Assembly (NCBI GenBank): GCA_051874735.1
Contig: JBJEGD010000003.1
Coordinates: forward strand, 1 to 64,000
DNA length: 64,000 nucleotides
Direction of reading: 5' to 3'
Origin: Candidatus Bruticola sp.
GTDB taxonomy: Bacteria > Vulcanimicrobiota > Xenobia > Xenobiales > Xenobiaceae
The position numbers and the translations under genes were made by a program. Below, piece by piece: positions 41,047 through 55,579 of this stretch (position 1 is the stretch's first letter; each line of letters begins with the position of its first letter). A model generated the notes under the pieces. It was not told the DNA's origin and searched no databases. It was given only the letters and a program-made list of their open reading frames with translations.

Positions 41047-42186
41047 TTAACGGCCGCGCTTCTTTCTGCCTTTGACTGATTCATCAGCAAAAATGCGCAG
41101 GTTATCAGGACGGTAAGCATTCACGATAGCGTCGTCGTAGCTAATTAAACCAGCTTCAACTAAACGGCTCAGCGAATACTCCATGGTGCACATGCCAAGT
41201 TCTCCGTTCATCTCTATAGTAGAGTAAACTTGATGCAGTTTATTATCGCGTATCAAAGCTGACAAAGCAGGAGCGCTAAGCAGAATTTCTCGAGCTGCAA
41301 CTCGCCCACCACGATCGACTCTAGAAATTAACTTCTGAGAAATTACAGCTTTTAGACAGCTAGCTAACTGTGTGCGCGCCTGCGGCTGACGTTCGGCAGG
41401 AATAGCTCCCAAAATACGCTCCAGCGTGCCAGTTGCATCGGGACTATGCAAACTAGCCAACACCAAATGGCCCGTCTCAGCTATAGTTAAAGCCATTTCA
41501 ATGGAAACGGCATCGCGCAGCTCACCGATCATAATCACATCGGGATCTTGGCGCAAACTGCTAATACAGGCGATATCGAACGAGTTAGTATGACGTCCAA
41601 CTTCACGCTGGCTGACCATACCGCGATGAGGATGCAAAATAAACTCTATAGGAGCCTCCAACGTTAAAACGTGGGCAGCTCTATTACGCAACACCGTATC
41701 CAGCAGAACGGCTAAAGTAGTAGATTTACCTACTCCAGTAGCACCAGTAACTAATACTAAACCTGAAGTAGGTAGCAGCTTATCTTTCAACTTTTCATCG
41801 AGACAGATGTCATCAAAGCTAGGAATTTGAGGAGGGATAAGGCGCAGAGCAGCCGCAGGCCCTAAACGATCGAAATAAGCATTAAGACGAAAACGCCCGA
41901 TGTCGGCAACATCGACAGCTGTATCCAACTCTAAGTTCAGCTCCCACTCCTTGCGCCGCTTGTCATCTAAAAAAGATGCAATCGTATCGCGCACTTCTAA
42001 AGCGCTCAACGGAGCGAACCCAGGCATAGCCGCTAATTCTCCGTTGAGACGAATCATAGGAGCCATACTAGATTTCAGATGTATATCAGAAGCTTGCATA
42101 CCGGCAGCACAGCGCAGCATAGCATCTGTATCTATGGCAGAACGGCGACTAGCGCTGCCTATAGGAGAGGCTGAATTTATAGTCAT
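41047..42186 (-). CDS. PilT/PilU-family type IV pilus ATPase
   Basis: ASDIHL, GATGVGKST, QREVG, LRQDPDVIMIGELRD and ETGHLV..LH. Confidence 0.9.
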   Translation of the reverse strand: MTINSASPIGSASRRSAIDTDAMLRCAAGMQASDIHLKSSMAPMIRLNGELAAMPGFAPLSALEVRDTIASFLDDKRRKEWELNLELDTAVDVADIGRFRLNAYFDRLGPAAALRLIPPQIPSFDDICLDEKLKDKLLPTSGLVLVTGATGVGKSTTLAVLLDTVLRNRAAHVLTLEAPIEFILHPHRGMVSQREVGRHTNSFDIACISSLRQDPDVIMIGELRDAVSIEMALTIAETGHLVLASLHSPDATGTLERILGAIPAERQPQARTQLASCLKAVISQKLISRVDRGGRVAAREILLSAPALSALIRDNKLHQVYSTIEMNGELGMCTMEYSLSRLVEAGLISYDDAIVNAYRPDNLRIFADESVKGRKKRGR

Positions 42187-43906: not shown

Positions 43907-46084
43907 CTATCTCATTAAACTTTCTGCTGCAGCGCACAGCAAAGCGGACTGTTCCGCATCAGCTGGGACAAAATGTTTAAATTGACACAACCTATCTAGC
44001 AAATGGATATGCTCAGCCACTTTCAAAACTTCAAGTTCAAGCATCTCTCCATCTAAATATGAACTCCAAGGTCCCAAATCGAGCTTTGAGATCAGCGTTT
44101 TTATGTTTTGTCGAATCGCTATTTTTAAAGACGCCGCGCTTAAAGCCAACTGTTCTAATCCGTCTATATCTCTGCAGACTAATACGTAAGGATTTGCCTT
44201 AAACAAAATATCTCCTAAAGTTAGTGAGATTGCCTGCAAAAAGATCGCCCCGCTGGTGCCCATAAAATGAGAACAAATAATACAGTTATCTCCATTAGAA
44301 GTATAACACGAAGAATCAGAGGGAAAATGTAAAAAGGCTGCAAAATGGCGGGCCCACTGGGCAGATACTGCAGGCATACTTCGGCCACTGAAGCGACAGC
44401 GGCGTAACCTTTCCGTATTGACCGCCATATCTTTACACACAGACGCAGTACTGTCGGTTACACTCAAAACTCTGTAGCTAGAACCACTAAAGTTAAAAAA
44501 GTCTCCAGGGCTGAGTCGACAATTAGCAGATAGTACACCTATAACCACATTACTGTCTCTATCAATGACTTTTAGACCATCATCAGCCGAGCCTACCATA
44601 GAAATATTGTGGTGTATTTCCCCTCTTTCAAAAAGTTTTTTAAGTTTATCTGAACGATAATAGCCTCCCTGAGTTCTGTATTTCAACAATCCTCCCTCAG
44701 CGACGCTACGTAAAATTCTGTTGCAAACTTCCTCAGTATAAATGGAACGTAAATACGAGGGCAGACGATGGTGCAAAGCGGCGGCGTTAATCACATCGTT
44801 GGAGCTCTGGCAGACTAAAGATATAGCCTGCTGTACCAAAACTGAACTCAAAAAAGGCGGGTGATCGCTGCACATATTAGCTTTTTCGGCCGCTTTGACT
44901 AGATGGAAATAGCAAAGCTTCTCTAATTCATTCTTATACAAACAAAGAATATGCGGTACTTGACCACGACGACCGCTGCGTCCCGCTCTCTGTAAAAAGG
45001 CATTGACATTAGACGGAGGCACAGTTAAAGCCACTGCATCGACGTCGCCTATATCAATACCAACTTCTAATGTTGAAGTAGCAAAACATATGGCCGACGG
45101 CAAAGCGGCAAAATTTTTCTCTGTTTTTTCTCTCTGCTCCGTCCCCAAACTTCCATGATGAGAAAAAACAGCCTCACCGAAAGGATTTATGGTTAAATAT
45201 TTCTTCACAGACACTAACTGTTCAGCTTCGGCACGAGATCGCACAAATACCAGCATTTTGCGACAATTATGCTCGCTGCAGTATTTAATGCAGCTGCGAA
45301 ATATAGCTAAACTGTCTAGATGTTCTTTCGTAATGCAGGCTGAAGCCTCGCCATCATCAACAGGACTGAAGTTAACTTCCAGCTCTACTCCCTGTTTGTT
45401 TTCAATGATCAATCCTTGACCAGCTAAATATTTACGGTTAATTATCTCTGAATTTCCGGGAGTAGCCGTTACTGCCAAACGCTGCAAACTCTTTCCTATA
45501 TAACCTAGAGTGCCCTCAATTTGCTTGGCCTTGGCACAATGGACTAAAGCATCGAGACGTTCTGCCAAAACAGCCAGCTGATCTCCACGAGCTGTCCCTT
45601 CAGCGACATGCAATTCCTCAAAAACTACCGTTTTTACTTGGATTAACTCGACAGCCCAACGACAAAGCAGCGAATCTAAAGACTCCAAAGTAGTAACTAA
45701 AACCCCAGCTTTTTTATCTCGCATAGGAGTGGGGTGATCACCCGTGCGCAGCAACACTTTTATAGAGCAGCGATCGAGAGGAGCAGAAATACGCTTAACT
45801 AGATCGTTAGCCAAAGCACGAGTAGGACAAATTATGAGAACGCATAATTTACCCGCTCGCATAGGCTCGAACCAACGCTCAGTTAGAGGAGCTAAATAAG
45901 CTTCAGTTTTACCTGAAGCCGTGCAGGAAGAAATAACAGCACTTTTGCCCAGCAAAATAGGCTCAATTACCTCAAACTGAATGGGGCGAGGCTTATAAAA
46001 ACGACCGTAAAAGACACCTTTAACACGTCTTAAACACTCCATCCGACGGCGCAGCTTACTTCTGTCCCAAGTATCAAGAACCAT
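43907..46084 (-). CDS. Lhr-like SF2 helicase (BrxHI/SngC-like)
   Basis: Q motif, TASGKTEA, PTRALANDL, TTLESL, variant motif II EELH, TAT, HHGSL, ATSTLEVGIDIG and QRAGRSGRR. Confidence 0.88.
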   Translation of the reverse strand: MVLDTWDRSKLRRRMECLRRVKGVFYGRFYKPRPIQFEVIEPILLGKSAVISSCTASGKTEAYLAPLTERWFEPMRAGKLCVLIICPTRALANDLVKRISAPLDRCSIKVLLRTGDHPTPMRDKKAGVLVTTLESLDSLLCRWAVELIQVKTVVFEELHVAEGTARGDQLAVLAERLDALVHCAKAKQIEGTLGYIGKSLQRLAVTATPGNSEIINRKYLAGQGLIIENKQGVELEVNFSPVDDGEASACITKEHLDSLAIFRSCIKYCSEHNCRKMLVFVRSRAEAEQLVSVKKYLTINPFGEAVFSHHGSLGTEQREKTEKNFAALPSAICFATSTLEVGIDIGDVDAVALTVPPSNVNAFLQRAGRSGRRGQVPHILCLYKNELEKLCYFHLVKAAEKANMCSDHPPFLSSVLVQQAISLVCQSSNDVINAAALHHRLPSYLRSIYTEEVCNRILRSVAEGGLLKYRTQGGYYRSDKLKKLFERGEIHHNISMVGSADDGLKVIDRDSNVVIGVLSANCRLSPGDFFNFSGSSYRVLSVTDSTASVCKDMAVNTERLRRCRFSGRSMPAVSAQWARHFAAFLHFPSDSSCYTSNGDNCIICSHFMGTSGAIFLQAISLTLGDILFKANPYVLVCRDIDGLEQLALSAASLKIAIRQNIKTLISKLDLGPWSSYLDGEMLELEVLKVAEHIHLLDRLCQFKHFVPADAEQSALLCAAAESLMR

Positions 46085-46114
46085 GATACAATTATTCCTA
46101 AATCATTAATTCCG

Positions 46115-47350
46115 CTAAAGCATATCACTGAGCGCAGCCTCATCAAGATCAGTCTGACCATTGATGTACCAATTATGCAAAACTGCGATCCAAAACTTCA
46201 CAAATAGACGATAACCGCCAGTAAAGATATGATCCATCATAAAATTAACAAAAACTTGCAGCGAAGCCTGTCCTCGTTCGCAATCAAACGAATGCCAATC
46301 CCAGGCAATAACAGCAGCGTCTGCCAGTTTTTGGCCTAATTCAGTAAAAAAACGTCCGTCGTTGTCGGTAGAACGTTCTAAATCGATCACTACCGATTGC
46401 GGACTAAACTTAGACATATGTAAAGGACGCTCCAGACGCTGCTGCAGAGCAGGATAAGACGCAACATTAATAGTCATAAATTCTGGAGGCACAGCGTAAA
46501 AAAACATAACTTTGGGCAGACGTGAACTGGCGCAAAGGTCGATAAGCTGGCGCAAATTATCTCCAATGGCCTGCAAATGGCGACGAGAGGAGCTGGAAAT
46601 ATGCATATCAACTTCATCGAAAAGAAAAATAACTCCAGGGAACCCTAAAGAATTTAAAATACTAACCATAGAACGCAATACGGGGAAAGCATTATCCGAA
46701 GCTATATCATCGAATACTCCAAATTTACGCAGAACTTCGCGATCGCAGCCTGCATCCCCCAACAGCCAACGCTCTAAAACAAAACTTTCATCTTCGTCAT
46801 TTGACTGACAAGCTGAAAGAAACCGTCTACATACGCGACGAAAAGTATAATTTTCTACCGGAACGTCGTCTAAATTTACATCAGCCCAAAACGGCGCCTG
46901 ATCTTCGGCTACTAAACGCAAAATATTAGTAAATCCAACCACGTCGGAGGCCGGTTCCAGCGTTTTATCACTGTGAGGGCTGCTGTGCATAACAATATTA
47001 GCAGCAGCAGCTTTATAAACGCGCAGCGCATCCTCATAGGGGCACTCAGTTGGGGACAAATTTACTGAACAAGTTAAAAAGCCGAGCCGCTGAGCGATAG
47101 AACGCACACAACTTAAAAAGTGAGTTTTGCCGGCTCCGTAGCTACCCTGCACCAAACGGAAGGCAGAACCTCCAGCCTGTCCCAGCAGACGACGTAAGTA
47201 CTCGTTTTCAATAATATCTAAATGAGAATTCAGACCAACTGTTACAAACTCTAAACCATGTTCAGGCGGCTGACCGTTTTCTCCCATACAGTCAATAATT
47301 TCCTGGGCTAAACTTTTAGAAAGAGTTTTCCGACTGCTGGGAAAAAACAT
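46115..47350 (-). CDS. BrxD/DUF2791-like P-loop ATPase (third)
   Basis: GSYGAGKTH, FLFDEVD and YPALQQRL; close paralogue of 49082-50359. Confidence 0.82.
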   Translation of the reverse strand: MFFPSSRKTLSKSLAQEIIDCMGENGQPPEHGLEFVTVGLNSHLDIIENEYLRRLLGQAGGSAFRLVQGSYGAGKTHFLSCVRSIAQRLGFLTCSVNLSPTECPYEDALRVYKAAAANIVMHSSPHSDKTLEPASDVVGFTNILRLVAEDQAPFWADVNLDDVPVENYTFRRVCRRFLSACQSNDEDESFVLERWLLGDAGCDREVLRKFGVFDDIASDNAFPVLRSMVSILNSLGFPGVIFLFDEVDMHISSSSRRHLQAIGDNLRQLIDLCASSRLPKVMFFYAVPPEFMTINVASYPALQQRLERPLHMSKFSPQSVVIDLERSTDNDGRFFTELGQKLADAAVIAWDWHSFDCERGQASLQVFVNFMMDHIFTGGYRLFVKFWIAVLHNWYINGQTDLDEAALSDML

Positions 47351-47388
47351 ACTGCATACTCCTTCTCATAAAAAAATAAAAGAATATT

Positions 47389-49095
47389 TTAGAAGTTGTA
47401 ATCTTCGTCATCGACATCCTCTTCTGAAGAGAAGTTGTCTTCTGCAACTAAGTACTCTTCAGAACTTGTTCCTGCCACAGAACTACTCGCGATACCACTC
47501 CGTTCCCCACCAGCCTCAATATGTTCCATCATTTCATGAACATAGGCACCAATATTTTCTCTGCACAATCGGGAATAATCTAACAATTCTAAAATACAGC
47601 GCAGTAGCTGGCGAGAGCCACTAATAGCCGAACGCTCCATCGCTTTATAAACAACCTGCCCCATATATCCGGCCGCTTTGTCATCACACAAGAAACTCGG
47701 ATAAGCCCGCCTGTACATATCAATAATAATAGAACAAAGCTGCTGGTAATCGTTGTTGCTAAGAGAACTAAGCTCAATAAAGGCGTCTTCACTAAGTTGC
47801 TCTTTTAGGGCATTAAGACCACCGCCATTATCCATAGTCATGGCAAACACGCAGTAGACGCCGCTTTTATAAATATCTCGCCCAGGATTATAAGTTACCG
47901 GCACGCTTCTGTGGTTAGGGTGACCGCCGCGCTGAAACTTCTGCACACTGCGTACCTTGTGCGTTCCTAAAGCTAAAGCAGAATAGTATCCGAATAACTG
48001 ATCCGCATAAGTGCGATCACGACTCGAGAGAATGTTGTACATTTCAGCTTCATCGAGGAGAAGAACTAAACCAGTATAGCCAACCTGTCTAGCTAAATAA
48101 GCAATTCCGCTGAGGATATTAGCATAAATATGGCCAAAAGTTCGATAATCTTTTAAAGCTGGAAACTTGTATACCGAAGGCGTATTCGGAAAGGCCCGCT
48201 GTAAAGAAGCGTTAAACTTATCTGTCAGTTCTTTTGATTCCTGACCTTCAAGCCAATCGATCATGTGACGAATTACCGCTTCTTGGTTATCCAATTCGGA
48301 CTGTTTTTCTTCAGTGCTTCCACAAGACTCTAAGTTATCTGCATAACGATTAAAGTAATAAAGAGCCGGACTCAAATAACGATGAAACTTTTCTGAACTC
48401 AACCAACCTTCAATAAGACCTAAACGGCGGGCTTCACGAAAAAGAGGCAGCAAACCGTACTTGCCGTCATGATCTGGGTAGGTCAAATTAAACATAAGCG
48501 CTCGGTAAACGCGCTGCGGATTGCCAGGACTGGCGTCCTTACTATTCAAAGCTATGCGGGCTGTTAAACACTTTTTACTTAAAGCTTTAGCTTCAATGCA
48601 CTCAAGCATATGAGTTTTGCCTGCGCCGTAATCTCCCAAAAAAACACGCACTGCGCCGTCGCTGATATTATCGAGGTCATAACAGACCATATCCATTTCT
48701 AAGCTACGTCCGATAGTGTAAAGTTCAACACGCTCACCCACTACACCGGTCCGCATGGCTTCTAAAATACGCAAAGCCACAAATTGGCCTTCTTCACCCT
48801 CGGGAAGAGCGGCAGCTCCTGTCAGCTCAGGACTATCTGAGAATTGGCAACTGTAACGGGAAAAACGCCGACGAGGAGAGGCCACGGGCAAAACTACACC
48901 GTGAGGAGATAAATACTTGAGTTCTTTAAAGGAGCAGCACTGGTTGGTATTGCTGATAAAAAAATTAATAAAGTAACTGCCGCCTTCTAAAATACGAAGT
49001 ACTCTGCCGGTGCCGTAACGTTCGTGGGAAACATTATCACCAACAGCCAGAACTCTGGCAGTCTTTTTTTCAGGAGCGCTCTTAGAAGTCTGCAA
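47389..49095 (-). CDS. BrxD/DUF2791-like P-loop ATPase (second) with N-terminal Tudor-like motif and acidic tail
   Basis: ILEAMRTGVV, GDYGAGKTH and GLVLLLDEAE; N-terminal VGDNVSHERYGTGRV. Confidence 0.82.
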   Translation of the reverse strand: MQTSKSAPEKKTARVLAVGDNVSHERYGTGRVLRILEGGSYFINFFISNTNQCCSFKELKYLSPHGVVLPVASPRRRFSRYSCQFSDSPELTGAAALPEGEEGQFVALRILEAMRTGVVGERVELYTIGRSLEMDMVCYDLDNISDGAVRVFLGDYGAGKTHMLECIEAKALSKKCLTARIALNSKDASPGNPQRVYRALMFNLTYPDHDGKYGLLPLFREARRLGLIEGWLSSEKFHRYLSPALYYFNRYADNLESCGSTEEKQSELDNQEAVIRHMIDWLEGQESKELTDKFNASLQRAFPNTPSVYKFPALKDYRTFGHIYANILSGIAYLARQVGYTGLVLLLDEAEMYNILSSRDRTYADQLFGYYSALALGTHKVRSVQKFQRGGHPNHRSVPVTYNPGRDIYKSGVYCVFAMTMDNGGGLNALKEQLSEDAFIELSSLSNNDYQQLCSIIIDMYRRAYPSFLCDDKAAGYMGQVVYKAMERSAISGSRQLLRCILELLDYSRLCRENIGAYVHEMMEHIEAGGERSGIASSSVAGTSSEEYLVAEDNFSSEEDVDDEDYNF

Positions 49096-50359
49096 AATCT
49101 TCGCTCTCCATTACTTCGCTATTGTCTTGCTGCCTGCCTACAGACTCAACATCAGTTGTACCTTCACCGCAACTGTACTCTGATTGCAAGACAGCAATCC
49201 ACTGTTTTACAAAATTACGGCGCTGACCAGCGTCAAAGTTCATAGCCAAATAGTTGCTAACTAACAGCTCTAAATTGCTCTTCTGCGTATCAATACTGTA
49301 CTGCCAATTCCAAGCAACAGAAGCTGTATGCAAGATTTTTTCTCCCAAGGCTGTAAAAAATTCTTCAGGCGTTAAACCTGAATCAGTTACATCGATAGTC
49401 GGAACCTGAGGACTAGAAGCAGAGAAAGGCATAGGACTATTTAGACGCTGCTGAAGAGCGGGATATTCAGAAACTACATCGCTGATAAACTCCGGAGGTA
49501 CAGCAAAAGCCCAAAAGAACCCAGGCAAACGCCTGCTGCCGCACATATCGACAATTTGACGCATGTTATCAACGACATCTTTTTTCTCACGCTTGGTTCC
49601 CGAAGCGATACGATCGACCTCATCGAACAAGGCCGCTATACCAGAGTAGCCGATCAACACCGCAGCTTGAACTAAACTGGACAGCATGGAAGAAGCATTT
49701 TGACGACATATGTACTCAGGTATCGTAATACTACCTAATTTCAGCTTTTTAACTGGGTGGCCTAAAATCCACATTTCGCAAGCTTCCGCTGTATTTTCAT
49801 CGTCTTCCCACAAACTTTTGACAAAATAGAGAAAAACTAACCGATAATTATTATTTTCAAAACGGCTCAGCTTGACCTTATTGAACCACAAACGACGCTC
49901 ATCCGGATCGGTTACGTTCATGGCCCAATTACGGATAACAGCATTGAAGCCCATAATTTGGCAAAAGTCTTCACTATGACTAGGAGCGGCGGCAACCCGA
50001 TCAGCCAGTACTCGATAGACGGCCGCTCCATCTCCGAAGCTACATTCTTTCAGTGATAATTCAACTACTGAAGCTAAAAAACCGCGTCTCCAAGCTAAAT
50101 TGCGCAAACAGGTCAAAAAATGAGTTTTGCCACTACCAAAAGAACCGCGTATAAGTTTGAAAGCTGAGCCGCGCCGTCCCTGCTGCATAACCTTCAAGTA
50201 GTGCTCGTCAAGTACTTGCAGAGGTTTATCTAGCCCAACAGTCACAAATTCTATACCGCGTTCCGGAGGGAGCCCTAAAGCCCCCATACGATCTATAATT
50301 TCAGATGCTAAAAACTCTGAAGGGCAAGCTCCAGCTTCAGACTTACACACACTAGACAA
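49082..50359 (-). CDS. BrxD/DUF2791-like P-loop ATPase (first)
   Basis: GSFGSGKTH, ALFDEVD and YPALQQRL; TTG start with AAGGAG RBS. Confidence 0.82.
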   Translation of the reverse strand: MSSVCKSEAGACPSEFLASEIIDRMGALGLPPERGIEFVTVGLDKPLQVLDEHYLKVMQQGRRGSAFKLIRGSFGSGKTHFLTCLRNLAWRRGFLASVVELSLKECSFGDGAAVYRVLADRVAAAPSHSEDFCQIMGFNAVIRNWAMNVTDPDERRLWFNKVKLSRFENNNYRLVFLYFVKSLWEDDENTAEACEMWILGHPVKKLKLGSITIPEYICRQNASSMLSSLVQAAVLIGYSGIAALFDEVDRIASGTKREKKDVVDNMRQIVDMCGSRRLPGFFWAFAVPPEFISDVVSEYPALQQRLNSPMPFSASSPQVPTIDVTDSGLTPEEFFTALGEKILHTASVAWNWQYSIDTQKSNLELLVSNYLAMNFDAGQRRNFVKQWIAVLQSEYSCGEGTTDVESVGRQQDNSEVMESEDFADF

Positions 50360-50364
50360 AGCGA

Positions 50365-51357
50365 TTACTCCTTATTTTGGAACCACAGCGAAAGATAATA
50401 TTGTCCGTTGCCAACTCCATCATCGAGCCAAAATACCTTTTCTTTGTTCTTAGTTGTCCCAATGGTGGCTGTACTTAAATTCAAGCGCAATTTTCCGCAC
50501 TGTAGTCCTGCGCAGCGGCGCAAACGCACTATATCCCAGCAAAATTGCAATCGAGAATACTCTTTAAAAAGACTGGGAGCGCCATTTTCTCTAAACTTGC
50601 GGCTCTGCCTAAGCACAGACAGCACAGCCCAAATATCATGCAACGGTACTCTATCGCCCAAAGATTTGCGCCGACAGCGCAACATAGTATTGTAAGCAGT
50701 CCAAACATCGGCAAAAAACTCTCTGCAGAACAGCTCGTTACCTTCTAAACTATCCGGCTTCACCCCATCAGCTAAATCGTCTTTATATCCGTTTCTATTG
50801 AGAAGCTCAATAAGCTCGTTGAGTGACTCAAAAAGATAATTAGCCTCTAACGGCCAGTCGTTAGCAGCCAACATACGAGCGTAAGCCACACAACAAGTTC
50901 CCTCTGCAAAATTAGGACGCAAATAAAACGAGCCGACTTTTAACTCTAAAGGTTCTGAACCAGTGCAGCGTACTTTCCATCCGAACTCAGCCGCAGCGTT
51001 CTTAAAATCTCTTCTAAAGCTATTTTCTGTTTCTTTTAAAGCCCAAGCACGCAAAGAAGCAACGCGCTCATTCAAGGAGGCAGAAACAAAAAACGGCCGT
51101 TCCTTATCTATTTCAGTGAGCGAATTATGCAATCGAACTAATGAAGAAAGACTCGAATCTTTTAAACAGCAGCTTAAAACCTCAACAAGATGCTTAAATT
51201 TATCGGCGCAAGCGCTCAACTCAGTCTGTATATCCGCAGTTATTTTTCCAGCTTCTTCCCACGACGAGGGCTCACCAAAATAATCATCACATGTTGAACC
51301 GTTTAGTACGTTCTTATTTGCCCATGAATCAGCGGCCATCCATGCCCCCATTGACAT
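50365..51357 (-). CDS. Hypothetical protein, paralogue of 51329-52153
   Basis: 330-aa ORF sharing blocks G.F.L..N, LAA..WP.EA and Y.x.QF..D with the upstream gene. Confidence 0.8.
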   Translation of the reverse strand: MSMGAWMAADSWANKNVLNGSTCDDYFGEPSSWEEAGKITADIQTELSACADKFKHLVEVLSCCLKDSSLSSLVRLHNSLTEIDKERPFFVSASLNERVASLRAWALKETENSFRRDFKNAAAEFGWKVRCTGSEPLELKVGSFYLRPNFAEGTCCVAYARMLAANDWPLEANYLFESLNELIELLNRNGYKDDLADGVKPDSLEGNELFCREFFADVWTAYNTMLRCRRKSLGDRVPLHDIWAVLSVLRQSRKFRENGAPSLFKEYSRLQFCWDIVRLRRCAGLQCGKLRLNLSTATIGTTKNKEKVFWLDDGVGNGQYYLSLWFQNKE

Positions 51358-52153
51358 AAATCTTTATCTGACTGTCTATATTTAGCTCGGAAGCGCTTTC
51401 CTCTATATAAATTTTACTGTCCAAATTTTGACAGCAGACCTCCTCCAAAGCTTTTATAGTATCGTACATAAACTGCGCTTTAGTGTAGCAAGCCAAGTTG
51501 TTCTTACTAGGACGACGTCCAAAATCACTGGCAGCTAAACCTATACAGTGCACTATAGGCCAAAGTTCTCGCAAAGTACAACTTTCTTCAGACTTAGATA
51601 AAACGGCCCAGGCATTATAGAGACGATTTAAGGCTAGTTTAGCAGCAGTGCGTTTACTATTTAATTCGGTTTCAAGATTAATCAAATTGGAAGCTACAGT
51701 CCCAGCTTCAGGCGGCCATCCCTCTGCGGCTAACACCCCGCCTAACAAGACAGATACACCATTCTGACTTTCATTAAAAGACAGGCGAAACAGCCCTATA
51801 GGCAATAAAGGCAGAGGCTGACCGGGTATAACGGACAGGGCGCCGCTAATGCGAGCCTCATCGAGCTTGCAGCAATCAAATCCGAGAGCAGAAGCTTCAG
51901 AGCTAAGTTCAGCGGCAAAATTAGATATTTCTGCCGATAATTTCGCACTAACTTGTTGCTTCAAAACCTCAAGATTGACAGACTGCACCGAACTATCGAA
52001 ATTAAGTTCAAGCCGACACAAGCCTCTGCCCGGCCGAGCCTCTAAAGACTTCAAGGCAGACAGCTGCTTACGGATAAGCTTAAGATAAGACTCAGCTTTA
52101 CTTGCAGCTTCTGCCAACTTTATTTGCAAGGCGTCTCTATTAGTTGCCACCAT
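51329..52153 (-). CDS. Hypothetical protein, paralogue of 50365-51357
   Basis: 274-aa ORF starting 6 bp after the glmM stop and overlapping the next gene. Confidence 0.75.
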   Translation of the reverse strand: MVATNRDALQIKLAEAASKAESYLKLIRKQLSALKSLEARPGRGLCRLELNFDSSVQSVNLEVLKQQVSAKLSAEISNFAAELSSEASALGFDCCKLDEARISGALSVIPGQPLPLLPIGLFRLSFNESQNGVSVLLGGVLAAEGWPPEAGTVASNLINLETELNSKRTAAKLALNRLYNAWAVLSKSEESCTLRELWPIVHCIGLAASDFGRRPSKNNLACYTKAQFMYDTIKALEEVCCQNLDSKIYIEESASELNIDSQIKIYVNGGMDGR

Positions 52154-52159
52154 AATTGC

Positions 52160-53527
52160 CTAACAAGAACAGCACTCTGACACAACCTGACAAACGCTGT
52201 CCACTAATCCTTTCAATTCAGGCAAAGAAGGCCCTTCGGCCATAACTCTAATTAAATTTTCTGTACCGGAAGGACGTATTAACAAGCGTCCCTTACCCTG
52301 AAGCGCATCTTCCACGCTCTTGACCGCTTCCAAAACGCGCTCATGCTGATTCCAAGTATGTTTATCTTTAACTTTTACATTAACCATGTATTGCGGTTTT
52401 TTAACTACAGCTTCAGCTAATTTAGATAAAGGCTGAGCGGCGTCCTTTATAATCTGGCTAAGCATAACACCAGTCACCAAACCGTCACCCGTAGTAGCAT
52501 AATCTAAAAATATAATGTGACCAGACTGTTCTCCACCTAACACAGATCCAGTACGGCGCATCTCTTCAAGAACGTAGCGATCACCAACGGCAGTTCTCGT
52601 CATTTCAAAGCCATTTTCCCGGCAAGCTTCTTCCAAGCCAAGATTAGCCATAACCGTAGTAACCAAACGTTTCCCGGGCAGATGGCCGCTCCGCTCTAAC
52701 CATTTAGCGAATAAAAGAAGCATATGATCGCCATCAATCATTTGACCTAATTCATCGCAAGCTAAACATCTGTCGGCATCACCATCGAAACAGAGACCGA
52801 AATCAGCTTCTAAATCGACTACTACCTTCTGCATAGATTCAGGGTGCGTAGAACCGCACTGATTGTTAATATTGGTACCGTTGGGGTACCGATGAAGTAC
52901 AGTTACTTCAGCCCCTAAATTGCGGAAAATACCTTCAGCTAAAGCGGAAGACGCACCGTTGGCGCAATCTAACACGATCTTTAAGCCATCTAAACGCAGT
53001 TTAGCCAAACTCTCAATGTAGCGAGCATACTCCCGCTGAGCCTCTTGACCGCTGATAATGGCGCCTATATTGGCCTCAACAGCCCTGGGCAGCTCATCAC
53101 TTTTACCAATAAGATCCTCAAGTTCATCTTCCTGTTCATCGCTAAGTTTATAACCATCAGCTCCTATCAACTTTAGACCATTATCGTAAAAAGGATTGTG
53201 ACTAGCCGAAACCACACAACCGCCCTGAGTATTGTAGCGCCTAATCGCCCAAGCGACACCAGGAGTAGGAATAATATCTAAACACAAAGCATTTACGCCA
53301 GAGCTAATCAGTCCACAGACATAACTATTTTGCAGCAGCTGACCGCTAACGCGCGTATCCCGCCCCACCGCAATGACAGGCCTTCTGCAAGTTTCAGCAG
53401 AACTACTGCTTTGAAACTGTTCCTTTACTAAATATCCATGAGCTCGCCCTACTTTGAAAGCTAACTCCGGAGTAAGAGTGTCATTTGCTCGACCACGAAT
53501 TCCATCAGTGCCAAATAAACGCGCCAT
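52160..53527 (-). CDS. glmM: Phosphoglucosamine mutase
   Basis: LFGTDGIRG, SASHNP, DGDADR, GGEQSGH and RPSGTE motifs. Confidence 0.96.
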   Translation of the reverse strand: MARLFGTDGIRGRANDTLTPELAFKVGRAHGYLVKEQFQSSSSAETCRRPVIAVGRDTRVSGQLLQNSYVCGLISSGVNALCLDIIPTPGVAWAIRRYNTQGGCVVSASHNPFYDNGLKLIGADGYKLSDEQEDELEDLIGKSDELPRAVEANIGAIISGQEAQREYARYIESLAKLRLDGLKIVLDCANGASSALAEGIFRNLGAEVTVLHRYPNGTNINNQCGSTHPESMQKVVVDLEADFGLCFDGDADRCLACDELGQMIDGDHMLLLFAKWLERSGHLPGKRLVTTVMANLGLEEACRENGFEMTRTAVGDRYVLEEMRRTGSVLGGEQSGHIIFLDYATTGDGLVTGVMLSQIIKDAAQPLSKLAEAVVKKPQYMVNVKVKDKHTWNQHERVLEAVKSVEDALQGKGRLLIRPSGTENLIRVMAEGPSLPELKGLVDSVCQVVSECCSC

Positions 53528-53749
53528 AACTAAACTTATCTCTCACATTTCTATACAAACGGATCGATCTAAGAGATACCGCCGACAAAAAAATTTTAAG
53601 CTCGCGCCTTCAATATTCGCTTATATTATCCCTGCCCAATATGAACTGCGGATCAACAGTATGCTTAACAGACATTGCGCATAAGTTCTTTCCCCTCACC
53701 CCTCAGTCAGCGCCGCTGTCAGTCCAAAAGTGCAGACAAAAACAATGCT

Positions 53750-54712
53750 TCAACTTTTTCCGTCGGTAGCTTCCTGAACGGCCAACGGCTCCACAGTCAC
53801 TGTAACCTGATTTTGGGGCACACCGTACGCTCTGTATTTACTAGGTATGAGCAGTTTTACTTTCCGACTTACAGATTTACCTGCGTACTTCAAAACGCAT
53901 TTTTCTACTTCTAAGCTATCTAAAGAAGCGTTTTCAATGTCGTCACCGCTAAGATAAACCTCTTCAGGAATTACATTGACTTGGTACACCTCTCCGCTGC
54001 TACTCTCAACCTGGATATTATTTAAACTTACCTGAACTTTGCGAACGGGATAAGCAGGTATAGTAACAAAAACGCTGTTTGTGTAAATTTCTACGTTGTC
54101 AACCTTCTTGCCATTGACGTCGACGGCAGTGAGCGTGACCGCTCTAGTACTAAAACTAGATTTGATGCCAGAAATAGAGATAGGTACAGAGACAAAAGCT
54201 ACCTTATCTACATCTTCCATACTGCCTACTATGCGCACCTTACTTGGCTCAACTATAGGATTTTCCAAACGACAACTGTCACTTGCTTTGCCTATAAGAC
54301 CTATTTTAACGGGTACGCTGGCAAAAGTACGCTCAGAAACGGCAGCCCATACGTGGCTGGGCTCTACTTGGGAAATCTCGGCTCCTCCAGGAGCCATAGC
54401 ATCGACAGCTTCTAAACTAGTTCCAGGTTTAGTTCTCTTACTTAAATCGACTACTACGGAAATGAGCTTAGGATCGATACGATCAATTACATTTTTAGTT
54501 CCGCTAATAGTCACGGTCACTTCTTTGGGATTAATCGAGCTAATTAAATCGTTATTATTAGGGGTAAGAATATCTATAGGTTTAGTGTAAACGCGCTGAG
54601 CTGGCAGTTCGCTAATAGGTTTCGCTAGAGTTTTTACTAACACGGCTGTAACTACAGCCATGAAAAAGGCCAGCATTTTTAAACCGAAATTACTGCGCAG
54701 ACGGGCAAACAT
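53750..54712 (-). CDS. cdaR: YbbR/CdaR family regulator
   Basis: N-terminal TM, repeated P..V.V.G YbbR-like domains, located between cdaA and glmM. Confidence 0.85.
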   Translation of the reverse strand: MFARLRSNFGLKMLAFFMAVVTAVLVKTLAKPISELPAQRVYTKPIDILTPNNNDLISSINPKEVTVTISGTKNVIDRIDPKLISVVVDLSKRTKPGTSLEAVDAMAPGGAEISQVEPSHVWAAVSERTFASVPVKIGLIGKASDSCRLENPIVEPSKVRIVGSMEDVDKVAFVSVPISISGIKSSFSTRAVTLTAVDVNGKKVDNVEIYTNSVFVTIPAYPVRKVQVSLNNIQVESSSGEVYQVNVIPEEVYLSGDDIENASLDSLEVEKCVLKYAGKSVSRKVKLLIPSKYRAYGVPQNQVTVTVEPLAVQEATDGKS

Positions 54713-55579
54713 CTACTCGTTTCCTCCGATCGCATCGCCAATAGTACGGAAAATATTGAAAGTACCAAACCGGCGGCGTTTATCTTTATTCCATTCAGCC
54801 ATAAGCTCTCTAGCCAAAGCCTTACGAACTTGCGCTTCTTCAACCATAGGCTGACTAAAAGTTCCGTCTTTGGCAATACGTATTTCTCCAGTTTCTTCAG
54901 AGACTACAACCACAATAGAATCACTCTGTTCAGTTATACCTATAGCGGCCCTATGCCTGGTGCCGAAGCGTGAATCTACTACAGAATCGGTAAGAGGTAA
55001 GTAACAGGCCGCCGCCAGCAGACAACCATCACGAATTACTACAGCTCCATCGTGTAAAGGTGTTTTGGGACGGAAAATAGTCTGCAGCAATTTAGCAGAT
55101 ATAAAACCGTTAACTATCTGGCCAGTTTCAACTACTTCCTGTAAACCGGTTTCCTGCTCTAAAACGATCAGAGCTCCAAAACGCGTAGTTGAAAGATTGT
55201 AAGCAGCCAAAGCTATTTCATCAATTATGCGCTTTAATTCTTCCTGACCGACCTCACTTATGCCGTTAGACGCTATTAACCCTTGCTGCCCTAAACGGGT
55301 TAACGCCCGGCGCAGTTCAGGTTGAAAGACAACTGGCAAAGCCACCAAAGTAGAGACTAAAATACCGTTAAGTATATAACTGAGCGTCTGTAGTCTGGCA
55401 AAATAAGCAATACCTTGCAGAATTAACAAAGCAGCAATGCCCTGAAGAATCTGCAAAGCTCTCGTCCCTTTTATAAGTAACAGAACGTAATAGAAAAAAA
55501 CTGAAACCAGAATTACATCTATAAAATCCCAATAAGTTAAATCTCGAAGTAAAGCGTATACTCGTTCAAGCAAACTCAA
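54713..55579 (-). CDS. cdaA: Diadenylate cyclase CdaA
   Basis: 3 TMs, FQPELRRAL, HDGA and GTRHRAA motifs. Confidence 0.95.
   Translation of the reverse strand: MSLLERVYALLRDLTYWDFIDVILVSVFFYYVLLLIKGTRALQILQGIAALLILQGIAYFARLQTLSYILNGILVSTLVALPVVFQPELRRALTRLGQQGLIASNGISEVGQEELKRIIDEIALAAYNLSTTRFGALIVLEQETGLQEVVETGQIVNGFISAKLLQTIFRPKTPLHDGAVVIRDGCLLAAACYLPLTDSVVDSRFGTRHRAAIGITEQSDSIVVVVSEETGEIRIAKDGTFSQPMVEEAQVRKALARELMAEWNKDKRRRFGTFNIFRTIGDAIGGNE

Follow-up and report, generated by a model that had tools for sequence, protein, structure and literature searches.

A six-gene cassette of DUF2791-family ATPases and an Lhr-like helicase: apparent expansion of a conserved four-gene operon and a candidate helicase-loading machine

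The closest described relatives of the genes discussed here belong to two systems, Shango (10.1101/2022.11.11.516204) and BREX type 2 (PMC12839542), both anti-phage by experiment and both built around a DUF2791-family ATPase and an Lhr-like helicase. In Shango, a TerB-domain protein (SngA) accompanies SngB and SngC, and the system lies in the P. aeruginosa defence hotspot cDHS1 (10.1101/2022.11.11.516204); in BREX type 2, BrxD is classed as a stand-alone ORC/Cdc6-type AAA+ ATPase and is proposed to load or activate the linked BrxHI helicase (PMC12839542). Here we analyse a six-gene cassette that encodes three such ATPases and one such helicase, in a 64,000-nucleotide stretch of DNA (the window, in whose positions all coordinates are given) from Candidatus Bruticola sp., an uncultured gut bacterium with an assembly of 2.47 Mb. 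Judged by its gene content and sequences, the cassette is neither Shango, for want of a TerB protein, nor BREX type 2, and is a distinct relative of both pairs; its six-gene form is a lineage-specific expansion, by duplication of an adaptor-like gene of no described family and of one ATPase, of a four-gene operon (unkB, ATP1, ATPb and helicase). An initial annotation of the window had proposed a distinct, possibly undescribed, anti-phage or DNA-surveillance machine. The distinctness stands, and we found no description of a two-ATPase, unkB-type operon in the full-text literature, although subscription journals and the supplements of PMC12839542 may hold one; a role in defence, on the other hand, is not favoured by the genomic context.

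The cassette (43907-52153) consists of six co-oriented minus-strand open reading frames (ORFs) in the ORF listing, and their exact coordinates and junctions agree with the tight spacing first reported, in which no overlap or gap exceeds 38 bp. In the 5' to 3' direction, unkA and unkB overlap by 29 bp, unkB and ATPa are separated by 5 bp, ATPa and ATPb overlap by 14 bp, and gaps of 38 bp and 30 bp separate ATPb from ATPc and ATPc from the helicase, respectively. The genes, and one predicted domain, are as follows.

unkA, 51329-52153, minus strand: 274 amino acids (aa); fast-evolving paralogue of unkB without the C-terminal module.
unkB, 50365-51357, minus strand: 330 aa; member of a large uncharacterised family that precedes the ATPase pair.
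ATPa, 49082-50359, minus strand: 425 aa; AAA+ ATPase of the DUF2791/BrxD family, apparently a diverged ATP1 duplicate in the ancestral position.
ATPb, 47389-49095, minus strand: 568 aa; second, anciently diverged DUF2791-family ATPase with a predicted N-terminal Tudor-like domain.
Tudor-like (SH3-barrel) domain of ATPb, 48880-49056, minus strand: about residues 14-72, predicted.
ATPc, 46115-47350, minus strand: 411 aa; apparently the other ATP1 duplicate, without the C-terminal acidic-aromatic tip.
Helicase, 43907-46084, minus strand: 725 aa; superfamily 2 (SF2), Lhr/BrxHI/SngC-like.

All three ATPases belong to PF10923 (BrxC_BrxD, DUF2791), as the initial annotation had recognised from the letters alone: ATPa, ATPb and ATPc score 114, 82.2 and 131.3 bits against a Pfam cut-off of 22.2, and their translations display Walker A (GSFGSGKTH, GDYGAGKTH and GSYGAGKTH, respectively) and Walker B motifs (FDEVD, LLDEAE and FDEVD) that are invariant in our alignments of 26 ATP1-type rows (A6) and of ATPb (A7). 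The PADLOC models of BrxD (46-103 bits) and SngB (53.8-77.1 bits) match all three, for example with 92.9 and 53.8 bits in the case of ATPa; the SngB scores, from a model without a curated cut-off, always lie below or near the BrxD scores of the same ATPase. The cut-off of the NCBIfam model BREX_BrxD (NF033438) is 350 bits, far above the 92.4, 46.1 and 101.8 bits that ATPa, ATPb and ATPc, respectively, obtain with it. A search of ATPc against PDB sequences returned nothing at E≤1, and a genome-wide search with PF10923 returned the three cassette ATPases and no others.

The last gene is, as first suggested, an Lhr-like SF2 helicase, with the Pfam domains DEAD and Helicase_C and PADLOC matches to BrxHI (199.3 bits) and SngC (176.8 bits, E=2.1e-52, residues 33-549). 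Its best solved relatives by sequence are the mycobacterial Lhr structures 5v9x (1.2e-20) and 7lhl, and its best NCBIfam model is that of the ligase-associated DEXH helicase, TIGR04121, at 156.9 bits, far under the cut-off of 850. It thus resembles Lhr and Lhr-Core proteins in its closest structures, in its best NCBIfam model and in a chromosomal, repair-like context; it differs from them in that the alignable part is the core only (residues 25-183 and motifs IV-VI), with no match to Pfam WH_Lhr and no Lhr-CTD. In addition, Lhr proteins are not known to need AAA+ partners.

With these assignments in hand, the comparison with the two described systems can be made gene by gene. Like Shango, the cassette places a DUF2791-family ATPase beside an Lhr-like SF2 helicase, begins with a small non-enzymatic partner gene and has no recognisable effector nuclease, and SngB (54-77 bits) and SngC (176.8 bits) are both matched. 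Unlike Shango, it has no TerB domain in unkA or unkB (Pfam and PADLOC), it contains two anciently diverged ATPase paralogues (three genes here) instead of one, one of them with a predicted Tudor-like domain, and it lies in a chromosomal housekeeping context. Like BREX type 2, it has a tightly linked ATPase-helicase pair for which BrxD and BrxHI are the best PADLOC matches; unlike BREX type 2, it adds an adaptor family and a second type of ATPase. As the initial annotation stated, TerB, PglX, PglZ and PglW are missing, and so is BrxC/PglY, from the six cassette ORFs and their six flanking ORFs when these are searched with Pfam and PADLOC (PglX, PglZ and PglW were not searched genome-wide). The PADLOC check that had been proposed yielded no description of this arrangement in PADLOC-DB 2.0.0.

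Among the relatives of the window organism, PF10923 proteins of about 400 bits occur in five genomes of the order in which unkB is not matched. In two of them, both large genomes (L050, 4602-8023, in G037; L051, 4626-8251, in G024), an ATPase scoring about 399 bits on PF10923 is paired with an Lhr-like helicase with WH_Lhr, and these pairs are canonical DUF2791-helicase dyads of another branch, whereas the cassette ATPases reach 82-131 bits on the same model. A third, unannotated gene of 268 or 453 aa follows the two dyads; it was considered as a relative of unkB and rejected, with profile probabilities of 0.07% and 0.28%, and a scan of ORFs there brought up no TerB protein.

Neither unkA nor unkB has a match in Pfam (E≤0.01), in PADLOC-DB 2.0.0 (5027 models, SngA included) or in NCBIfam, and between themselves they are barely alignable by BLASTP (E=6e-4 over 63 residues). 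Profile comparison is far more telling (hhalign probability 98.6%, E=5.9e-16, 148 columns), and the suggestion in the initial annotation that two paralogues without a known family occupy the partner position has therefore held: unkA and unkB are, by this measure, true paralogues. What unkA lacks is the C-terminal module, the best-conserved portion of unkB, which ends in the motif RLxLGxATxGxTxxK...GQYYLSLxF (alignment A1 and diverse members); its position upstream of the ATPases does fit the unkB family, whose members lie directly upstream of ATP1, the single ATPa/c-type ATPase of four-gene loci, or of its counterpart in 14 Xenobia loci (L011-L024) and in 23 loci of other phyla.

The AlphaFold2 (AF2) model of unkB (pLDDT 83, pTM 0.72) opens with a long helical hairpin at the N-terminus, continues with a sheet of five strands and has a helical region at the C-terminus that closes in a beta-hairpin. 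Foldseek found nothing at E≤1e-3 for this model against the PDB, a search of the viral structures of BFVD was empty at the same limit, the unkB profile had no meaningful match among PDB sequences, and an ESM Atlas search returned 'hypothetical protein' clusters only. A wide VIA search peaked at Z 8.5 over 75 residues in a list taken up by the N-terminal hairpin; residues of about 200-330 gave weak winged-helix-like VIA matches (Z 5.3-6.2), among them the ORC1 winged-helix domain (5.9-6.2), Cdt1 (5.4) and TubR (5.5). No TerB protein is among the structure matches listed for unkB, which by itself would not be decisive. The closest named homologue, at 68% identity, is labelled Candidatus Bruticola sp., which puts the window organism in the class Xenobia of Vulcanimicrobiota (Eremiobacterota), and a word-indexed protein search with the diverse unkB alignment returned 12 proteins, of which 10 are same-genus relatives already matched by the single protein.

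How, then, did a six-gene arrangement come about? The initial annotation had taken three ATPases and two partner genes as the basic design, and this has to be revised, since the conserved unit has four genes, two of which are duplicated in this lineage. With the unkB protein as query, 30 of 41 related genomes give a match, among them all 10 of the genus (G000 included) and 17 of the 18 of the family. Synteny, as determined by tblastn with the window proteins on 16 fetched regions, shows that three more genomes of the genus, and one from a second genus, share the full six-gene set, which together with the window makes five loci; three further genera of the family have the four-gene form (unkB, ATP1, ATPb, helicase). 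Two other families of the order, with genomes of 5-9.5 Mb, keep unkB-ATP1-ATPb in other contexts and with no adjacent helicase (six loci, L019-L024). By profile, 33 of the 42 genomes sampled from families f1-f4 of the class have unkB; none of the 108 genomes from 17 other families in the sample of the phylum gives a match. One of the genomes of the order in which this profile does not match, G026, also carries a strongly diverged ATP1-ATPb pair (L052, 6996-9577; 38 and 77 bits on PF10923) beside photolyase and gyrB genes, and the family may therefore extend more widely in the order than the unkB counts suggest.

Beyond the class, the unkB family is large, with 948 representatives at E≤1e-3, 632 at ≤1e-10 and 193 at ≤1e-30 among 1.84 billion representative proteins. 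A scan of species genomes yielded 23 further loci in Planctomycetota, Myxococcota (Lujinxingia, Nannocystaceae), Acidobacteria and metagenome-assembled genomes (MAGs) labelled 'Deltaproteobacteria' or 'Proteobacteria'; as the scan used a four-sequence sub-clade alignment, these loci cover one unkB sub-clade with its close relatives rather than the family as a whole. The search for the same gene order in other genomes, one of the follow-ups first suggested, was thus amply rewarded: in addition to eight loci of the family, 22 of the 23 loci of other phyla have the order unkB, ATP1, ATPb, and in the remaining one the contig ends within ATP1. ATPb is immediately followed by the helicase at 12 of the 23 loci, the contig ends too early at 4, and no helicase was found in the downstream DNA examined at 7. 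The operon is therefore present in at least four phyla (Eremiobacterota, class Xenobia; Planctomycetota; Myxococcota; Acidobacteria), and because gene content and order recur in this way the cassette is far beyond a chance assembly of neighbours.

The ATPase duplication can be followed in some detail. ATPa and ATPc are 39% identical, ATPb is about 23% identical to either, and by tblastn ATPc is slightly closer than ATPa to the single-copy ATP1 proteins of other genera (41-45% versus 38-40%). In a maximum-likelihood (ML) tree of 26 ATP1-type proteins, the ATPa and ATPc clades each have support of 100/100, and the two share one side of a 97/94 branch, apart from all 16 single-copy ATP1 proteins. 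A single duplication before the two six-gene gut genera split, with fast divergence afterwards, would explain this topology. The daughters have also parted at their ends: an acidic-aromatic tip, [DE]F.D[FV], closes the C-terminus of all 16 single-copy ATP1 and all 5 ATPa proteins (21 of 21 rows, in all phyla sampled; ...EDFADF in the ATPa of the window, 49082-49102), and it is gone from ATPc in all five six-gene loci. ATPb of the six-gene lineage has added an acidic tail that ends in DYNF or DWT in four of five cases (...DDEDYNF in the window, 47389-47412). In the helicase, motifs I, Ia, III, V and VI are intact and conserved, and motif II (residues of about 156-159) reads EELH in all 5 six-gene loci (the window and L011-L014), as against DE[LV]H in all 10 four-gene loci aligned. 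The EELH form is a conserved change from D to E at the Mg-binding position, coinciding with the duplication of adaptor and ATPase.

Such losses raise the question of whether the six-gene form is simply a four-gene system in the course of degenerating, with unkA, ATPa or ATPc as functionless duplicates and a helicase weakened by its EELH motif. The missing C-terminal module of unkA, the missing tip of ATPc, the presence of EELH in five of five loci and the long stems of ATPa and ATPc can all be read in this way. We nevertheless regard this as highly improbable, because each of the five six-gene loci, in two genera, retains six intact ORFs, because the Walker motifs are invariant across the 26 ATP1-type rows, and because the EELH change is conserved and not scattered; furthermore, ATPa and ATPc are 73-86% identical between species whose GlmM proteins are 85-89% identical, which indicates purifying selection.

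The setting of the cassette also bears on what it may do. Directly upstream in the window lie three genes that form a complete operon for cyclic di-AMP (c-di-AMP) and cell-wall precursors, cdaA-cdaR(YbbR)-glmM (52160-55579).

cdaA, 54713-55579, minus strand: Pfam DAC/CdaA_N; upstream of the cassette.
cdaR (YbbR), 53750-54712, minus strand: Pfam YbbR; upstream of the cassette.
glmM, 52160-53527, minus strand: Pfam PGM_PMM I-IV; directly upstream of unkA.

Only 6 bp separate the stop of glmM from the start of unkA, and from this spacing alone the cassette is probably co-transcribed with glmM. On the other side, Pfam identifies glgA, a PilT-like T2SSE ATPase (41047-42186) and a 5'-nucleotidase. 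The order cdaA-cdaR-glmM-cassette recurs at eight loci of other genomes of the family (L011-L018; at L015 cdaA is beyond the start of the contig), the order glmM-cassette-glgA is kept, whole or in part, at 8 of 8, with glgA in place wherever the far side is visible, and the identities of the cassette proteins across the family drop in step with GlmM. Together these observations point to vertical inheritance of the cassette between glmM and glgA in the window's family. In addition, the cassette has been kept and indeed enlarged in genomes of 2.4 Mb, compared with 5-9.5 Mb for relatives in the order.

In other phyla the neighbours are again of a housekeeping kind, namely a PepF-type peptidase, YidC, tryptophanyl-tRNA synthetase (TrpRS), a PfkB kinase, FKBP and a Cls-like phospholipase D (PLD). 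The initial annotation had suggested a search for enrichment in defence islands, and in the 19 loci covered here this came out negative. From these loci we chose 118 flanking ORFs and scanned 109 of them with PADLOC, leaving out the 9 longest, 4 of which were Pfam-scanned and showed no defence domain. Only 7 of the 109 had a match at 1e-10: two Ser/Thr kinase domains, one PLD, one HEAT repeat, one IscS-like cysteine desulfurase and two weak restriction/SIR2-like matches, the last two both at L038. In 18 of the 19 loci no defence-island context was seen.

This is where the most serious rival needs to be considered, which is that the cassette is a Shango-like anti-phage system that has become fixed in the chromosome, with unkA and unkB as fast-evolving sensors in place of TerB, the ATPases relaying the signal and the helicase acting on phage DNA or replication intermediates. 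In its favour, the models matched are BrxD and SngB for the ATPases and BrxHI and SngC for the helicase, components of systems that are anti-phage by experiment (10.1101/2022.11.11.516204; PMC12839542); unkA is only 35% identical between genomes whose GlmM is 85% identical; the duplications are confined to one lineage and have long branches; and outside Xenobia the distribution is patchy, with unkB in 9 of 41 genomes of one Planctomycetota order. Yet the cassette contains no nuclease, toxin or other effector recognisable by Pfam or PADLOC, its glmM/glgA synteny is steady across genera, and unkA and unkB match 0 of 5027 PADLOC models. Moreover, unkB is found in 25 of 41 genomes of the Myxococcota order around the Lujinxingia locus as well as in most of the class sample, and nearly always in single copy. 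To these points can be added the retention of the cassette in strongly reduced genomes, the near absence of defence-type neighbours and a helicase that can be unlinked and is conserved all the same, which would be unusual for a mobile defence operon. We therefore think of a defence role as possible, if somewhat doubtful, and place genome maintenance (at stalled transcription, at R-loops or in repair) slightly ahead of it, because the cassette is inherited vertically at a fixed position after glmM, has been retained and enlarged in reduced genomes, is highly prevalent in single copy, has a helicase that is conserved even where it is unlinked, and lies among housekeeping genes without any effector.

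The unlinked helicase, in turn, invites another explanation, in which the unkB-ATP1-ATPb trio works without any helicase, in the envelope or c-di-AMP pathway of cdaA-cdaR-glmM or in protein remodelling, and the helicase is a separate repair enzyme. Consistent with this, the trio has no adjacent helicase in L019-L024 and in 7 of the 23 loci of other phyla, the helicase orthologues that are unlinked share no conserved neighbour that might serve as an effector, and a gap or overlap of a few bases joins the trio or cassette to glmM in the window's family. However, the helicase directly follows ATPb in 12 of those 23 loci and is present in all 8 family loci, and each of 6 genomes checked for an unlinked homologue has a full-length one (E 4e-63 to 4e-104), at 32-38% identity in 5 of them, the sixth being a genome from the other phyla with its helicase on another contig. 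Furthermore, a DUF2791 ATPase with an Lhr-like helicase is a recurrent dyad (BREX type 2, Shango, L050 and L051), and the cdaA-glmM linkage is limited to one family. A helicase-free role for the trio is, in our opinion, quite improbable.

Returning to a role in genome maintenance, what might such a machine look like? One clue is found in the N-terminal extension of ATPb, where 16 of 21 aligned orthologues (alignment A7) share the motif GDxVxHxxYGxGxVxR...GG.Y. At E≤1, Pfam relates this stretch to CarD_TRCF_RID in 10 of the 16 (best E 0.0031) and to PcrA_UvrD_tudor in 7 of the 16 (best E 0.0033), all under threshold; in the window, ATPb scores 17.2 bits on PcrA_UvrD_tudor (PF21196, cut-off 23.9) and 16.5 bits on CarD_TRCF_RID (PF02559, cut-off 23). 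The AF2 model of the domain (pLDDT 77) is a small five-strand beta-barrel for which Foldseek returned chiefly Agenet, PWWP, KOW and Tudor domains, including the UvrD1 Tudor domain (9dqs_B, 30% identity, TMt 0.75) and the C-terminal domain of T. thermophilus UvrD bound to UvrB (7egt_B, 29% identity, TMt 0.80), with PcrA (5dma) also matched. VIA gave Z of 6-7.2, mostly to small barrels of the Tudor, KOW and PWWP type, and both 7egs and 7egt appear in the structure match lists. On this model the predicted fold is Tudor-like, and membership of the UvrD/PcrA Tudor subfamily is suggestive but not established. In its favour are the motif GDxVxH..[FY]GxGxV, the five-strand barrel and 25-32% identity to the UvrD1, T. 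thermophilus UvrD and PcrA structures over 47-53 residues; on the other side, the ATPb domain is N-terminal on an AAA+ ATPase whereas that of UvrD and PcrA is C-terminal on a superfamily 1 (SF1) helicase, the Pfam scores are under their cut-offs, and partner binding is a proposal. When the genome is ranked by CarD_TRCF_RID, Mfd comes first, CarD second and the ATPb stretch third. The cassette was considered as a replacement for Mfd and rejected, as the genome encodes CarD and also contains an ORF of Mfd length in which a RID domain is present.

The reading that we favour, and hold only tentatively at something a little short of an even balance, is that an ORC/Cdc6-type hetero-ATPase together with its adaptor loads or activates the helicase for chromosomal nucleic-acid surveillance, in a maintenance role. 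This argument by analogy extends the BrxD-BrxHI proposal, as given in PMC12839542, to ATP1 and ATPb, which would form a hetero-oligomer of AAA+ proteins of the ORC/Cdc6 type, the class to which that source assigns BrxD. In trans, unkB would contribute its coiled-coil hairpin and a possible winged-helix end, and the oligomer might in this way recognise a nucleic-acid structure; ATP binding or hydrolysis would then cause the 3'-5' Lhr-like helicase to be loaded or switched on. The Tudor-like domain of ATPb could tether the machine to a partner, much as the Tudor domain of UvrD or PcrA does with the RNA polymerase beta lobe or UvrB, and the acidic-aromatic tip of ATP1 may act as a docking peptide. 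We take the tip to resemble the C-terminal docking peptide of single-stranded-DNA-binding protein (SSB), which is a lead and not a test. A complex prediction for ATPa with unkB, with alignments as input, returned a score of 0.01 and gave no answer either way. In the six-gene lineage, the duplicated pairs unkA/unkB and ATPa/ATPc would share out these roles between them.

A number of observations weigh against this reading. The two described relatives are, after all, anti-phage systems, genomic context separates the two roles only weakly, and two features of the cassette are also typical of genes in conflict. First, the partner genes diverge much faster than the flanking housekeeping genes: against three genomes of the same genus, in the same order throughout, unkA is 63%, 35% and 31% identical and unkB 66%, 59% and 46%, compared with 84-86%, 73-78% and 56-63% for the ATPases and 89%, 85% and 69% for GlmM. 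Second, the ATPa and ATPc stems in the ML tree are long (1.91 and 1.02, respectively). The duplications are lineage-specific as well. The structural clues are open to challenge as well, since the Tudor call combines Pfam scores under threshold (17 bits against 23-24) with matches at Z 6-7 of a kind common to all small SH3-like barrels, the domain is missing from 5 of the 21 ATPb orthologues, and the winged-helix reading of unkB depends on matches with Z<7. In addition, because the genome carries both Mfd and CarD, there is no obvious gap for such a machine to fill. Consensus scans are uninformative about the probable co-transcription with glmM, with 25 promoter-like sites against 23.7 expected from a shuffle and 29 terminator-like sites against 17, spread within genes.

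A bolder version would have a previously unrecognised, vertically inherited helicase-loading machine, in which an ORC/Cdc6-like hetero-ATPase works with a winged-helix adaptor in trans and a UvrD-type Tudor domain provides the tether to RNA polymerase or UvrB, place the Lhr-like helicase on stalled transcription complexes or R-loops. It would be a housekeeping pathway for genome maintenance in the four phyla named above, from which defence would have recruited related pairs, those of Shango and BREX type 2. We consider this version unlikely as a whole. The cassette is of interest because a DUF2791 ATPase with an Lhr-like helicase is the core of two validated anti-phage systems and the cassette appears to represent a third, much more widespread branch, with two obligately paired ATPase types, a new adaptor protein, a Tudor-like docking domain (as predicted) and stable chromosomal inheritance. 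It might provide a cleaner system in which to ask what the ATPase and helicase do together, helicase loading included, and it opens the question of whether genome-maintenance machinery is the source of such 'defence' modules or a second function of theirs. The six-gene form, in which a C-terminal module, an acidic tail and a motif II change have been divided up, looks like a natural experiment in subfunctionalisation.

Two minor recurrences in the neighbourhood deserve mention. A gene for a PilT/T2SSE-type ATPase lies near the helicase in the window (41047-42186) and also right after the unlinked helicase orthologue of a distantly related genome (L055, 9124-10590), which may be residual synteny. 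In addition, a gene for a PepF-type M3 oligopeptidase stands in divergent orientation just upstream of unkB both in a Xenobiales genome (L022, 7463-9274) and in a Lujinxingia MAG (L036, 6685-8517), and this adjacency could be a coincidence or the remnant of an old synteny.

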